IMG/VR virus record: IMGVR_UViG_2737471854_000004
Coordinates: 1-49,583 of that record
Source: a virus
Lineage: Duplodnaviria > Heunggongvirae > Uroviricota > Caudoviricetes
DNA length: 49,583 nt
Direction: 5' to 3' (one strand)
This document shows, in pieces, positions 32,979 through 39,531 of the stretch. The stretch's first letter is position 1. The number at the start of each line of letters is the position of its first letter. Below the pieces are notes generated by a model, which was not told the DNA's origin, did no database searches, and saw only the letters and a list, made by a program, of their open reading frames with translations. The translations under genes and the position numbers were made by a program.

Positions 32979-33441
32979 TTCTCAATCTCTCGATGGCGCA
33001 GTGCAGCAGATGCCAGTTGTTCAGGCTGACGTATGAAGTATAAATAAACTGGCTCCAGTGTAAAGCCCCCACATTGATGGAATAAAAACCAAACAACAGA
33101 TTGCTGGGATAAAAACAACGCTTATTATTAAAAACGGTTAAACAAATTAAATTTTAATGTTATGCAAATCTGCCAGATCACCATAATATCTCATTTGAAA
33201 ACCGCTGAAATAACAACCCTATCAGGGTTAATCATATTAAGGTGAGTAAATATGGAAAACAACAAATCTGCACATTACGTTCCTTTTTTATCTGTAATAC
33301 TTTTTGTTTTATGCTGTGCGTGGGCATTATTTTTATAAAAATATTTACAGATGAAGTAAACCCGCCAATCAGGTTAACTGTGGCTGCGTTGAGAATGCAT
33401 AATACATCAGAGGTTGCGGGGATTTCTCCCCGCTGGTCCTC

Positions 33442-33597
33442 TTACTCCCCAAGTTCGTAAGCTGTGAAGACAGCGGCCTCCGTCTGGTCGGTTCGGATTC
33501 GTACCTCGCAGAGGTCTTTCCTCGTTACCAGTACCGTCACTATAACGATTAAACAGATGACGATCAGGGTGATTAACATCGCCTTTTGCTGCTTCAT
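33442..33597 (-). CDS. hok: Hok/Gef-family type I toxin
   Basis: MKQQKAMLITLIVICLIVIVTVLVTRKDLCEVRIRTDQTEAAVFTAYELGE, near-identical to HokD/RelF as I recall it; an in-frame upstream extension (to 33654) occupies the usual mok position. Confidence 0.75.
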   Translation of the reverse strand: MKQQKAMLITLIVICLIVIVTVLVTRKDLCEVRIRTDQTEAAVFTAYELGE

Positions 33598-34200
33598 AGC
33601 CCGCTTCTTCTTGCCTTTCAGCACGTAAGAGACTAACCTACGTTTGTAAGGCATAGATTGGGCCCCAGATTAATGTTAAGCCTCTTGCCGGATGCGTAAT
33701 ATCAACTGGGGTTTTTTCTATCTGCCTTTGATTTTCATGCCCAAGGCAGATAGCCTCAAGCCCCCGCAGCCATACTATTTAACCCCCGTTACCTCGCCAA
33801 TATGAAATCAATCAGAAAGGCGATCCATAAGAACAATAGCAAGACAATAAATTGCCACCACAGCCGCAATAGCCAACGCACACTTGAGAACCAGCACGAC
33901 AACCTCCTGTATTGGACGTGCACCTGCCCTGATAAATATGAGGCTGTCTCGTCAGTGATTCAAAACAACTATTGGGTATAGTTTCTGTGATTTTGTTCTG
34001 TAGAAATGGAACACAACAACCAGTCACCACCAGCACTTCTTTAAATACGCTAAGTCCGACGCAAGCTAACCTTCTAGTCCGCTTTGAGCGAGGAGCGGAC
34101 CTGACATTGGGGTATGTCAATTTATGGGAGCAGGTCAGGGGCATTAATGCCCCCATATGGAATAAGTTTCACCTTGACATTAATAATGCTCTTGGGACAA

Positions 34201-37048: not shown

Positions 37049-38488
37049 ATGGATAATAATATTCTATTTATTTCATCAATTGAGCGGTTTAATGATTTCG
37101 AAGAGGTTGTTAGACGCTTTTTACAGCGAATGTTTAATGCAGATGCTTATATTACAAATGGCCCTTATGACGGAGGCAAGGACGTCGTTTACTCAGTAAG
37201 AGGTCGTGAAATAAGAGAGGTAATACAGGTATCTATTATAAAAAAAGGTTTAGAAGATAAACTTGAAGAAGACTTAATCAAAACAGATGATTTAATTAAA
37301 AAATATAATTACCCTCCTGTATTGAATTTTTTTTGGAGCCACAAAATATCTGAAAGCAAGCTTGAAGTTTTAAAAAGCAATGCCAGAAAAAATTATGGGA
37401 TAACCCTCGAGTTTTATGACGCAAATAGAATATCTCAAAAAATCACCAATGATTATCCGGAGATATTAACCTTTCTTCTTGAGGAAGTTCACAATTATCA
37501 ATCCTCTAAAAAGGATGAGTTGGACATAAAAGAAATAGCATTTTACGAATATCTGGTGTTAAGTAAAGATGCTGCCAATTTAAAGAATGTAATTATTGAT
37601 TCATACATAGTTTCATTACTTACAGGTCAAGGGAAGTCAGAGCATGATTTAATCAATGAAACCCAAATTCTTGGGGTACACAATGAAACTCTTAAAAATA
37701 GATTGTATCTTTTAAAGCGAGATAATCGAATTATCCTTGATGGAGATTTATACAGTCTGTCTGAGGTTGAAAGTAAGAGAATCAGGAATCTTGAGTTAAA
37801 AGAAATAGCCAAAAGGAATGAGGTTTTAACAATAATTGGTAATGCGACCTCAAAATACTTTAGTGAAAATATATCCACCGAGGTTCTTGACCTAATTAAG
37901 GAGGCTTATGCTGAGTCGGTCAATCTACAGCTTAATGAATTAAACTTCGAATCCCCAAGAAATCAAATTGTTAAAGGAATTATTAAACAACTGGAAAAAT
38001 TGATAACTGAAAAAGGAAAAATAAACAACTCATTGTCTTCAAAATTAGCTAATGAGCTTGTTGAGTTATCTGGGAGAAATGAATATCTTTCAGACTATTG
38101 CTCATCAAGGCTATGCATAACTCTATTAAATCAAAAGAAACTTGAAAGATATATTGACAATAAAACGTTTTTTTTATACCTAGATGCCCCAGTATTGATT
38201 CCATATCTTGTTGCATTAAGATACGATAAAATTTCTAACAGTGAAAAATCGATAAGCACTGTTAAAACGTTAAAGAAAATAGTATTTAACCTTAAAAACA
38301 GACACATTCGTGTAACCCAAGAACATCTTGAAGAAACAGTACGACATTTATTAAATGGAATGAAAATTAGTTCTTTTGCCAATGATGAATTAGTTAGGAA
38401 GATAGGTAATTCTAAAAACGTATTTTTTAATACATATATAAATATTAAAAAAGCAAACCTAGTAGTTACAATTTCGAAAATTTTTTAG
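37049..38488 (+). CDS. Mrr/PD-(D/E)xK-like N-terminal nuclease-fold protein, 5' part of a frameshifted gene
   Basis: ORF 37013..38488; start moved to MDNNILF (purine-rich RBS). Motif FEEVVRRFLQRM...GPYDGGKDVVYS...EVIQVSIIKK; remainder predicted helical; AT-rich. Confidence 0.45.
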   Translation: MDNNILFISSIERFNDFEEVVRRFLQRMFNADAYITNGPYDGGKDVVYSVRGREIREVIQVSIIKKGLEDKLEEDLIKTDDLIKKYNYPPVLNFFWSHKISESKLEVLKSNARKNYGITLEFYDANRISQKITNDYPEILTFLLEEVHNYQSSKKDELDIKEIAFYEYLVLSKDAANLKNVIIDSYIVSLLTGQGKSEHDLINETQILGVHNETLKNRLYLLKRDNRIILDGDLYSLSEVESKRIRNLELKEIAKRNEVLTIIGNATSKYFSENISTEVLDLIKEAYAESVNLQLNELNFESPRNQIVKGIIKQLEKLITEKGKINNSLSSKLANELVELSGRNEYLSDYCSSRLCITLLNQKKLERYIDNKTFFLYLDAPVLIPYLVALRYDKISNSEKSISTVKTLKKIVFNLKNRHIRVTQEHLEETVRHLLNGMKISSFANDELVRKIGNSKNVFFNTYINIKKANLVVTISKIF

Positions 38489-39318
38489 AAGATTTTATTG
38501 GCTATGAAGATACATCTGGCTCTATCGATGCAAAGTTTTATAAACTAATTCGTTCAGTCTCTCAGTATTTAAATCTAAATAGAATTGAAGTTATTTCAAC
38601 CTCAGTTTATCAGGAAGATAGAATCATTGAGGAAGTTGCCAGGAAGTTTTCTAGGCAAATATCTGGTCCAAAAAAAAGAAATCCACGAACTATTAATAAT
38701 GATATTTATGCTGCATTAACCTTATCTGATGACAGCATACACTGCGATGAAAAGGGAGTCGGTCAAATCCCTATGCTAATTACATGGGATGCAACTCAGC
38801 ACACACTCAGGAATATAGTAAGACAAAAAGATAAATATAAAGAATGGTTGGTTTACACTCCCCAAAGAGCAATTGAAAGACTTTCAATGTTAGAAATGAA
38901 AATTGAGAGCTCCGCAATTAAAGATGGTGTTTTAGCAATTATTGATGAGGATTATTTCTTCAAGGAAAACGATTCAAATTTAATCGATACTCTGGCATTG
39001 CTAGTGAAAGATGATTCCCCTGACGCCGGCGCATTAACAACTTTGATAAATAAACTATCGCAAAGGGTAACCGAGGAGTCTTTAGATTCTCAAGATATTG
39101 AAAAAGAAGCATTCAATACTTTAAACGAGATTTTAGTATTTACTTACACTGAGTTTAAAGATAATTTTAGCCAGGTAAAAATTGTTTTCAGTGATGAAAA
39201 ATATACCGACTCAATCTTTGAGATACTAACCTCAACACTTAAGCGACCTTTCGATGATTCTTCTAGAATAGAGTATAAAAATAAAATAGACGAAATAATT
39301 TCAGTTCACTTTGGTTGA
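38449..39318 (+). CDS. 3' part of the same gene in the -1 frame
   Basis: This frame is open from 38449, 324 nt upstream of the annotated Met at 38773, and overlaps the upstream ORF by 40 nt across A6/T6 homopolymers. Confidence 0.4.
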   Translation, partial: KSKPSSYNFENFLEDFIGYEDTSGSIDAKFYKLIRSVSQYLNLNRIEVISTSVYQEDRIIEEVARKFSRQISGPKKRNPRTINNDIYAALTLSDDSIHCDEKGVGQIPMLITWDATQHTLRNIVRQKDKYKEWLVYTPQRAIERLSMLEMKIESSAIKDGVLAIIDEDYFFKENDSNLIDTLALLVKDDSPDAGALTTLINKLSQRVTEESLDSQDIEKEAFNTLNEILVFTYTEFKDNFSQVKIVFSDEKYTDSIFEILTSTLKRPFDDSSRIEYKNKIDEIISVHFG

Positions 39319-39531
39319 CTGTTTGGGGAGAGGGTTCTCCCCAATTAAAGAACTTATTAACAATATCGATAAAGTTGTGAACTGTTCCCCATGGATTGAT
39401 GCAGATAGGTGCTATCAACATCCGCCTTTGGCACAAAGCGGACAACCACGCTAGCTCTACCGACATGGCTTTTCCCATTGCTTTAAGTGCGTCAAAAAAC
39501 AGTCTCCATTAAAATTTCCTCCCGGTAAAAA

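Follow-up and report, generated by a model that had tools for sequence, protein, structure and literature searches.

Site-bounded modules around a short tyrosine recombinase gene in a Rac-like prophage of Escherichia coli

Genes and modules of the AT-rich block

The 49,583-nucleotide (nt) stretch of virus record IMGVR_UViG_2737471854_000004 that we analyzed (hereafter the window) comes from a Rac-like prophage, and its positions 32300-40300 match three Escherichia coli O155 (NWU) chromosomes with a single 1-nt difference. Our subject is an AT-rich block within this prophage, together with the short A and B sites that divide it into three modules carrying an LA2681-type HEPN gene, a short tyrosine recombinase gene and a gene for a 756-amino-acid (aa) nuclease-domain protein. 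As an earlier reading based on the sequence alone had placed it, the block lies between the Nin/Q region and the replication genes, with Q-like DUF1133/Phage_antitermQ, YbcO-like and DUF1367 genes on its left and ydaV (IstB/DnaC-like), ydaU and ydaT on its right. A sliding-window calculation of guanine-plus-cytosine (GC) content gave ~0.46-0.50 in the flanks and 0.27-0.36 across ~34.2-39.2 kb, with a rise to 0.42-0.46 at 36.0-36.75 kb, inside the block (0.459 for the whole window). The drop that the sequence-only reading had seen by eye at 32980-39530 is therefore real, with a left limit that was set too wide, the cargo occupying ~34101-39443. The features are listed here in order along the window; AST215, YJ1, A20, M8 and HYM1 are comparators, and L015 is another lambdoid prophage.

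33442-33765, minus strand: hok/mok coding sequence (33442-33654) with the sok/hok leader; conserved left flank (Pfam HOK_GEF, E=1e-17; Rfam RF01794)
34077-34100, no strand: A site GTCCGCTTT-GAGCGA-GGAGCGGAC (whole site GTCCGCTTTGAGCGAGGAGCGGAC); left cargo boundary, where flank homology ends at 34100 (AST215) or 34099 (YJ1); agrees with the A consensus at 24/24 positions
34101-36129: cassette 1 (HEPN gene), GC 0.328
34201-35946, minus strand: LA2681-type HEPN gene of 581 codons, interrupted in frame by a TGA at 35668-35670 (Pfam PF18733)
36130-36165, no strand: B-type half site (B') TTCCGCTTC-TGGCAC-AGGGCTGCT (36130-36153; 24-nt site TTCCGCTTCTGGCACAGGGCTGCT), directly 3' of the recombinase stop
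36144-36165, no strand: conserved hairpin CAGGGCTGC-tgtt-GCAGCACTG, fused to the B' half site; module start in all aligned copies
36172-36774, minus strand: short tyrosine recombinase pseudogene, 200 codons, catalytic domain only (Pfam Phage_integrase; RefSeq pseudogene)
36777-36805, no strand: inverted repeat TCAAATCTCC / GGAGATTTGA directly 5' of the recombinase ATG; conserved in the alignment and including a GGAG ribosome-binding motif
36814-36837, no strand: A-type site (A') GTCCCTTAT-GAGCGA-GTATTGGAC (whole site GTCCCTTATGAGCGAGTATTGGAC); closes the recombinase module and opens the 756-aa cassette; L015 homology begins at 36814
36838-39419: cassette 2 (756-aa gene), GC 0.318
37049-39318, plus strand: gene for the 756-aa protein, with an Mrr-like PD-(D/E)xK N-terminal domain, a winged helix and a helical/PIN-like region (a 756-codon RefSeq coding sequence in sister genomes)
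39420-39443, no strand: B site ATCCGCCTT-TGGCAC-AAAGCGGAC (whole site ATCCGCCTTTGGCACAAAGCGGAC); right cargo boundary, where L015 homology ends at 39443 and the YJ1 flank starts at 39421
39444-39508, minus strand: canonical B flank AACCACGCTAGCTCTACC (39444-39461) running straight into ydaW (DUF1627), of which the first ~21 codons are present, from alignment with the YJ1 and A20 B flanks and with ydaW of M8 and HYM1, and from translation

Boundaries were drawn by BLAST against seven other Rac- or Qin-type prophages. On the left, homology passes through DUF1367 and hok/sok and ends, depending on the comparator, at 33777, 33830, 33847, 33872, 34041, 34099 or 34100; on the right, it restarts at 39450 in every Rac comparator, K-12 included. 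Because homology with other Rac-like prophages continues through hok/sok, this locus is flank and not cargo, and hok, which had been counted among the genes of the island, has to be removed from it. The hok gene itself lies at 33442-33597 and the sok RNA at 33592-33765 (RF01794, 91.7 bits vs a cut-off of 59), giving the Hok peptide and antisense RNA of a type I toxin-antitoxin system; sok was the sole known RNA family matched across 32.9-39.6 kb.

Between these flanks the comparators carry unrelated genes, as at a hotspot. Parts of the query matched 4926 of 5426 E. coli genomes, and its full content was matched by 3. The order in the comparators is ydaV, ydaW (DUF1627), DUF977, variable content, hok and DUF1367, and the variable content may be a NACHT protein (M8), an AAA ATPase with DUF4435, PARIS-like (HYM1), a nucleotide-binding protein with SLATT (FDAARGOS_1287), QueH (042) or hypothetical genes (A2); in K-12 Rac, ydaW is followed by lysis-gene remnants and trkG. 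With flanks common to thousands of E. coli genomes, content found in three and other cargo in the comparators, the earlier suggestion of a variable cargo site in Rac-type prophages holds. There is strong support for regarding 34.10-39.44 kb as an occupied variable-cargo slot, which in relatives lies between hok/sok and DUF977-ydaW. We found no truly empty slot (flank-site-flank) among the loci compared; the nearest is that of strain A20 (L221, 1620-1893), where a minimal A..B unit of ~270 bp without an open reading frame (ORF) sits between hokD and DUF977 of a Qin/Rac-type prophage, in the order flank, A, ~225 bp of non-coding filler, B, flank. It represents an "empty" cassette or else what is left of a cassette.

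The right edge of the slot in the window has been altered. The sequence AACCACGCTAGCTCTACC normally precedes DUF977, as in YJ1 and A20, and here it switches straight into ydaW, which is cut after ~codon 21 and carries a 1-nt frameshift after codon 5, with DUF977 absent. This arrangement points to a secondary deletion of ~1.1 kb that would have taken DUF977 and most of ydaW. The small minus-strand ORF at 39263-39478, described earlier as truncated by the edge of the island, is a read-through chimera, with ~10 codons from ydaW and the remainder read through the B site and the tail of the cassette; the gene that is truncated is ydaW itself.

RefSeq annotates the HEPN gene as two ORFs, which lie in one frame and are parted by a single TGA. 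The joined 581-aa product matches Pfam HEPN_LA2681 (PF18733, E=5.4e-32, 111 bits vs a cut-off of 27), and an Rx4-6H motif is seen in it by inspection (...EIRNAMEHRS...). Uninterrupted homologues of 579 and 564 codons are found in other E. coli, where the usual length of the family is ~565-580 codons, and a homologue with 79% identity has Trp at the position of the TGA (TGG to TGA). The "interrupted HEPN-motif gene" of the sequence-only reading is thus an LA2681-HEPN gene with one in-frame stop codon. Anantharaman et al. (PMC3710099) list the LA2681 HEPN as "fused to TPR," and the non-HEPN N-terminal half of the product fits that listing. In other genomes, a relative of the gene adjoins an ssrA integrase or sits at the end of an integrative and conjugative element.

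The recombinase gene, which RefSeq labels a pseudogene with an internal stop, contains two nonsense codons, TAA at 36763-36765 (codon 4) and TGA at 36703-36705 (codon 24). Read through, its product scores 56.9 bits against Pfam PF00589 (cut-off 27.1, E=2.9e-15). Intact homologues of 200 aa, with the same ATG start and 87-95% identity, are common; the gene is full-length at 200 codons and not, as had been supposed, truncated at its N terminus. Its catalytic positions align with those of XerD (HSMRR~HVLRH, GH~GH and RY~IY), candidates for the first Arg (DSKLRGCDL) and the Lys (QQKTG) were assigned by inspection, and the catalytic positions are conserved in intact copies. A 200-aa protein leaves no room for the usual N-terminal core-binding domain. 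The palindrome CAGATATgagATATCTG at 36703-36719, which had been noted at the supposed truncation point, does exist, but it lies at no truncation point or boundary: it encodes QISHIW and is invariant in 6/6 aligned copies, and as coding sequence that does not vary in any copy it is ruled out as a boundary or recombination signal.

Homology among copies of the recombinase module spans 36128-36841 (~700 bp) and takes in the gene, ~40 nt on its 3' side and ~65 nt on its 5' side, ending at 36828-36841. The GGAG motif lies in the 3' arm of the stem-loop before the ATG, and similar stem-loops of other sequence precede the gene in Erwinia, Pseudomonas and others (L021-L100). This suggests a translational-control hairpin, and the repression may be conserved, as in some transposases of insertion sequences (IS).

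The ORF of the 756-aa protein is split solely by a run of six A residues (A6) at 38447-38452, vs A7 in three otherwise identical RefSeq NWU genomes. What had been read as a frameshifted nuclease-like gene is indeed split in the window, but the frameshift rests on this one run, and the gene is intact at 756 codons in the three sister genomes; the A6 may stem from a sequencing error at the homopolymer, from a mutation that is very recent or from slippage-type variation. The family comprises ~36 clusters of 752-761 aa and one of 799 aa, from Gammaproteobacteria and Burkholderia, and the protein has no match in Pfam, NCBIfam or PADLOC. In a structure predicted for P0001, which is 97% identical, the N-terminal domain resembles the fold of Mrr-like restriction-endonuclease domains, and the family alignment shows D41, D45, Q60 and K71 to be invariant, with a motif E-x-I-Q-x-S instead of (D/E)xK. 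Their domains and genomic context suggest that the HEPN and 756-aa proteins may be products of defence or toxin genes.

Relatives of the 756-aa gene occur as single genes in small islets of Pectobacterium and Pseudomonas aeruginosa, and one occupies the equivalent replication-to-Q position in L015. Positions 36814-39443 of the window are 93.7% identical to L015 9765-12400, a match that starts exactly where the A site starts and stops exactly where the B site ends. L015 carries this cassette alone, without a recombinase nearby. The same prophage has a Peptidase_C92 gene (7778-9788) in a B..A interval, the place taken elsewhere by the recombinase gene, so cargo can occupy intervals of either polarity, a property shared with dif-module arrays.

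Each junction between modules has a 24-nt imperfect palindrome, made up of 9-bp arms and a 6-bp centre. The arms follow the consensus GTCCGCTnn / nnAGCGGAC, the centre is GAGCGA in A and TGGCAC in B, and the modules are ordered flank-A-[HEPN]-B'-[recombinase]-A'-[756 aa]-B-flank. The sites at 34077 and 36814 fall in one repeat family, D1. No att-like direct repeats were found at ~33.0 and ~39.4 kb, where the sequence-only reading had proposed a search for them; the sole meaningful repeat family consists of the 24-nt sites, four related imperfect palindromes at 34077, 36130, 36814 and 39420. A sigma-54 promoter reading of TGGCAC was rejected by eye, TTGC being missing at the -12 spacing.

The block is a composite of three abutting modules, not one element. 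It had been taken for a single integrative element that entered once, integrase included, between the Nin/Q and replication regions and is now decaying, and an AT-rich block between flanks of normal GC, a recombinase gene and several disabled genes are what such an element would leave. It would not be expected to lack att-type direct repeats at its edges, to carry its recombinase centrally and at just 200 aa, or to share that gene, alone and between unrelated cargo, with 858 genomes; nor would it explain the separate distribution of the HEPN gene and the 756-aa cassette or the mosaic GC content of the three modules (0.328, 0.456 for the recombinase module, and 0.318). We consider a single insertion highly improbable. 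The claim of degradation fared better, since two nonsense codons in the recombinase gene and a TGG-to-TGA change in the HEPN gene bear it out, with the 756-aa gene, intact in sister genomes, left uncertain. The present island is a decaying instance: its recombinase and HEPN genes are dead, DUF977 and most of ydaW have been lost, and the status of its 756-aa gene is doubtful.

A and B sites, recombinase and cargo beyond the window

We scanned for the sites at a threshold of at least 19/24 consensus positions. Around Enterobacterales recombinase genes there were 76 sites in 233 kb (0.326/kb), compared with 5 in 152 kb of control loci (0.033/kb); the remaining 44 kb of the window had none, and shuffled sequence gave 0-1. 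The centres hardly vary: 55-57 of the 58 A sites have GAGCGA, and 50-53 of the 53 B sites have TGGCAC. Sites are organized in arrays, in which a B site is joined to an A site by ~18 nt of semi-conserved sequence (AAGCTAACTGAGCTGAAG), and such junctions follow one another at intervals of 0.6-5 kb, almost all of them in the same orientation. Arrays flank the recombinase gene on both sides in 20-kb loci of Pectobacterium, Buttiauxella, Klebsiella, Phytobacter, Erwinia, Providencia and others, with 22 B-spacer-A junctions in all and up to ~6 cassettes per 20-kb locus. In every Enterobacterales copy, the recombinase gene itself has a B-type site on one side and an A-type site on the other, as if replacing a spacer.

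The composite B-spacer-A junction folds as one long, imperfect B:A hairpin in 4 of 6 junctions tested (z -3.6 to -5.4), and it may serve as an attC-like single-stranded hairpin substrate. A transposon, with A and B as its terminal inverted repeats, was also considered and rejected, given the constant ~18-nt B-A spacing and the lack of a target-site duplication at the junctions of the window, L015 and YJ1.

The recombinase module is present at 87-93% identity in 858 of the 5426 complete E. coli genomes, with near-constant end-points and differing neighbours. Among the places where it is found are Rac, a Qin/dicB-type prophage and chromosomal islands, in which it lies by dynamin-like (Eleos-type), reverse-transcriptase, ETEC_3214 and CBS-domain genes. 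Islands of extraintestinal pathogenic E. coli (clone D i2 and ST131; L005 and L006, ~3000-14000) hold the same recombinase and A/B-bounded units, whose cargo is dynamin-like (Eleos-type), large frameshifted reverse-transcriptase and ETEC_3214-family genes. These islands are chromosomal, and the system is therefore not confined to prophages.

A scan of one genome per species placed relatives of the recombinase at at least 546 loci, with identities that reach 95% in other Enterobacterales and fall to 61-68% in Pseudomonas, Burkholderiales, Alteromonadales and others; all of them go by generic database names ("site-specific integrase"). Of 80 loci, 75 carry an intact gene, and the median ratio of nonsynonymous to synonymous substitution rates (dN/dS) among Enterobacterales copies is 0.087. 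The recombinase is under purifying selection.

Outside the Enterobacterales the sites differ together with the enzyme. In Pseudomonas and Stutzerimonas, a sharply bounded recombinase unit of ~730 bp lies between unrelated flanks, with its own 22-nt inverted repeat on each side, and in Pseudoalteromonas repeated sites keep TGGCAC/TCGCTC centres within arms of GTCTGC..GCAGAC. Bracketing by inverted sites is thus a trait of the family, and the sites co-vary with recombinase lineage. One Stutzerimonas contig (L092) has two recombinase modules 3.7 kb apart (9886-10619 and 13605-14356), and a Pseudomonas locus (L054) has a 1.5-kb inverted duplication beside the recombinase (10691-12227/13122-14658, 92% complementary), flanked by repeated copies of the CGGCCCAGACYGTGTAAAARCG site that face both ways. 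These arrangements may be the footprint of inversion or duplication at the sites.

The exact B pattern was found in at least 120 IMG/VR contigs. Of the 80 phage loci that we fetched, 26 lay in a DUF977/Hok context, and the typical locus had a single A..B unit measuring 0.55-6.2 kb (median 1.5 kb). Altogether, 97 units yielded 115 ORF clusters, mostly singletons. Cargo recognised by PADLOC or Pfam included DRT1a, SIR2-HerA, PD-T7-1, PD-T7-5, a type IV restriction enzyme and PDC-S33, as well as TIR, HNH, RelA/SpoT, a Lit-like Peptidase_U49 and a pPIWI-associated nuclease. Non-defence cargo was present too (MFS, ArsB, TerC and LysR), and many cargo proteins had no match.

Relative to the A-to-B direction, the largest ORF of a unit faces forward in 45 cases and backward in 51. 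This balance is what would be expected if the recombinase flipped cargo between A and B, making defence expression phase-variable as in fim switches or shufflons, and both the near-complementarity of the sites (in their consensus forms, B is ~83% identical to the reverse complement of A) and the size of the recombinase, which is that of the FimB/FimE invertases, would suit such an inversion. Even when one site is inverted, however, two of the six centre positions do not agree between A and B, a mismatch that normally blocks productive exchange, and flipping leaves unexplained why cargo differs between identical flanks or is identical between differing flanks. The recombinase scores 20.3 bits against the NCBIfam model for tyrosine-type DNA invertases (NF007371, PRK09871), far below the cut-off of 222 bits and outside Fim-type invertase membership. 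No pair of loci with a cassette inverted between the same flanks was seen in comparisons that did not include a systematic search for one. Inversion as the function of the sites therefore strikes us as very unlikely.

Exchange at the sites and its probable catalyst

If units are exchanged at A and B, homology between loci should break within the sites. We compared 134 units with their 700-nt flanks by BLAST and found that 63-65% of the internal ends of high-scoring segment pairs fell in the two 37-nt site windows, against an expectation of ~2.3%. The sites themselves are divided in the same way. Between loci with the same flank and different cargo, A sites (n=60) were 98% identical in the flank-side arm, 94% in the centre and 66% in the cargo-side arm, the last being at the background of 67%; for B sites (n=50), the corresponding values were 100%, 100% and 82%. 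Between loci with the same cargo and different flanks (n=12), the cargo-side arm of B was 92% identical and the flank-side arm 78%. The B site of the window is itself chimeric, its left arm being like that of L015, which shares the cargo, and its right arm identical to that of YJ1, which shares the flank. This segregation of the arms locates the exchange point between them, and it is the footprint expected of site-specific strand exchange in a central overlap.

We propose the following mechanism. A and B would be core sites of site-specific recombination, with strand exchange inside the 6-bp centre. The two centres would be heterospecific, A pairing with A and B with B, so that A..B units could swap between DNA molecules, or excise and reinsert within arrays, while the flanks are kept. 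The short recombinase inside the arrays would probably catalyse this exchange, in cis or in trans. In the window, the system would be a fossil, and its 756-aa gene either freshly frameshifted or miscalled at the A-run.

Several observations weigh against this proposal, in whole or in part. The locus pairs behind the breakpoint and arm comparisons are phylogenetically non-independent, and the site consensus was built from the same loci. The recombinase lay within the fetched DNA in 1 of the 80 phage-contig loci with an A..B unit, and a 68-nt junction probe matched 1112 of 5426 E. coli genomes, vs 858 with the recombinase module. Since most units have no recombinase nearby, action in trans or another enzyme must be assumed. 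The arms of B' and A' that face the recombinase gene depart from the canonical form, and site arrays were not evident in Pseudomonas, where there are just two sites bracketing a solitary recombinase gene. PADLOC, finally, matched none of the three window proteins (HEPN, recombinase and 756-aa).

The scarcity of recombinase genes near phage-contig units and the excess of junction-bearing over recombinase-bearing genomes are what one would predict if A and B were instead "linker" sequences, at which homologous recombination (RecA, Red or RecET) shuffles morons, or the targets of another recombinase. On that account, the short recombinase would be a passenger or a selfish module homing to junctions, and the module does behave like an insertion, being sharply bounded at ~0.7 kb with unrelated flanks in every taxon. 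There is precedent for elements that target recombination sites in the IS1202-family IS elements at pdif sites (PMC10132070). The arm segregation speaks against this account, with exchange confined between 9-bp arms and the cargo-side arm at background beside a flank-side arm at 98-100%. Arms of 9 nt, or even a site of 24 nt, would be very short substrates for homologous recombination. The 9-6-9 geometry with two conserved and distinct centres is the layout of tyrosine-recombinase core sites, and the sites vary with the lineage of the recombinase (GTCTGC..GCAGAC in Pseudoalteromonas, separate inverted repeats in Pseudomonas). As for another recombinase, the A and B sites bear, to our knowledge, no resemblance to E. 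coli dif or cer. We regard the linker account, the strongest rival to our proposal, as unlikely.

The reading that we favour is that the 34.10-39.44-kb block is probably a swappable slot of three site-bounded modules, exchanged by site-specific recombination with the short recombinase as probable catalyst. Judging from the sequence comparisons, the exchange appears to be enzymatic and site-specific, and the recombinase is likely to be the enzyme that catalyses it. A broader extension, which we offer tentatively and as at best an even prospect, is that the block is the fossil of an undescribed and widespread cassette-exchange system. Such a system would consist of a 200-aa recombinase and heterospecific 24-bp sites that package genes or small operons, many of them anti-phage, and shuttle them between lambdoid prophages, plasmids and islands of Enterobacterales. 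Related pairs of enzyme and sites would extend across Gamma- and Betaproteobacteria, and the system would join integrons and dif modules as a third natural means of cassette exchange.

Elsewhere in the window, a second AT-rich stretch (30000-31700, GC 0.39-0.44) lies directly downstream of the Q-like DUF1133 gene and carries a tRNA-Arg(tct) gene at 30148-30223 and a minus-strand gene for an AraC-family regulator at 30577-31320 (Pfam HTH_18/HTH_AraC). Other Rac-like prophages have tRNA-Gly/tRNA-Thr at the matching position, and the stretch looks like a further variable cargo position. A RefSeq baseplate protein gene lies ~3 kb to the left of the Q-like gene (about 29300-30400 and leftwards), and the usual lysis and head genes are missing between the two, so the prophage is mosaic or rearranged relative to canonical Rac.

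Comparison with known cassette and hotspot systems

Anti-phage hotspots have been described in P2 and P4 prophages and satellites (Rousset et al. 2022, PMC9122126). How the "integrase-only" defence islands of E. coli are mobilised "could not be readily determined," according to Hochhauser et al. (2023, PMC10121019). The slot in the window resembles both, in that unrelated defence-type genes are substituted for each other, from strain to strain, at one fixed place in the conserved backbone of a temperate phage. Those hotspots and islands are defined by their conserved flanking genes, and the mechanism of exchange has been left open or attributed to homologous recombination in the flanks. The cargo units described here, unlike those of the P2/P4 hotspots, have their own 24-bp end sites and a dedicated small recombinase gene.

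The closest analogues are the dif (pdif) modules of Acinetobacter and, more loosely, integrons, but defining features of both are lacking here. The dif modules likewise stand back to back, are bounded by short core sites of two alternating kinds and keep the same end-points in different contexts; their cargo consists of adaptive genes and toxin-antitoxin systems, with every inter-site interval forming a module. The dif modules, however, use 28-bp XerC/XerD sites and the host XerCD and are found on Acinetobacter plasmids, whereas the sites here are 24 bp long and lie in prophages and islands of Enterobacterales. With arms of GTCCGC..GCGGAC and centres of GAGCGA or TGGCAC, they are not XerC/XerD-type 28-bp sites. 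Their arms are near-identical, which would imply a homodimer, the two kinds differ in their centres and not in arm order, and the system has its own gene for a 200-aa recombinase.

Integrons also pair a tyrosine recombinase with arrays of mostly single-gene, promoter-poor and hyperdiverse cassettes joined at imperfect palindromes. Many integron cassettes are for defence, and many cassettes or junctions lie away from a recombinase gene, as in clusters of attC sites lacking integron integrases (CALINs). In contrast to integrons, the recombinase gene here lies inside the array, with cassettes on both sides, there is no attI/Pc polarity, genes face either way (45 forward and 51 backward), the sequence of the site is conserved and not its structure alone, and the 200-aa recombinase is without an N-terminal DNA-binding domain. 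IntI is ~320 aa long and has a specific extra helix. The best NCBIfam score for our recombinase was to the XerA/integron-integrase model NF040815, at 51 bits vs a cut-off of 220. There is also a likeness to engineered cassette exchange with heterospecific lox or FRT sites, in which arms are shared, centres are incompatible, the interior is replaced and the flanks are preserved; that scheme is a laboratory design, and what we describe would be a natural counterpart.

In open-access papers and bioRxiv, which we could cover incompletely, we found no prior description of the A/B sites, of the recombinase system or of the Rac/Qin hok-DUF977 slot. A variable defence-type slot in a prophage backbone is a kind of locus already known; its site-bounded architecture with a minimal recombinase is apparently undescribed.

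For the window, a precise modular map replaces the description of a decaying integrated element, and two candidate single-gene defence or toxin proteins are flagged, the LA2681-HEPN protein and the unannotated 756-aa Mrr-like/winged-helix family. If the A and B sites and the recombinase work as proposed, the compact natural pair of recombinase and heterospecific sites could be used as a tool for cassette exchange, and the two 24-nt sites would be a sequence signature for finding unknown defence genes in thousands of genomes. The same sites and enzyme would also provide an answer for some of the "integrase-only" defence islands, and a testable mechanism by which defence genes could move at hotspots that have no recognisable mobile elements.

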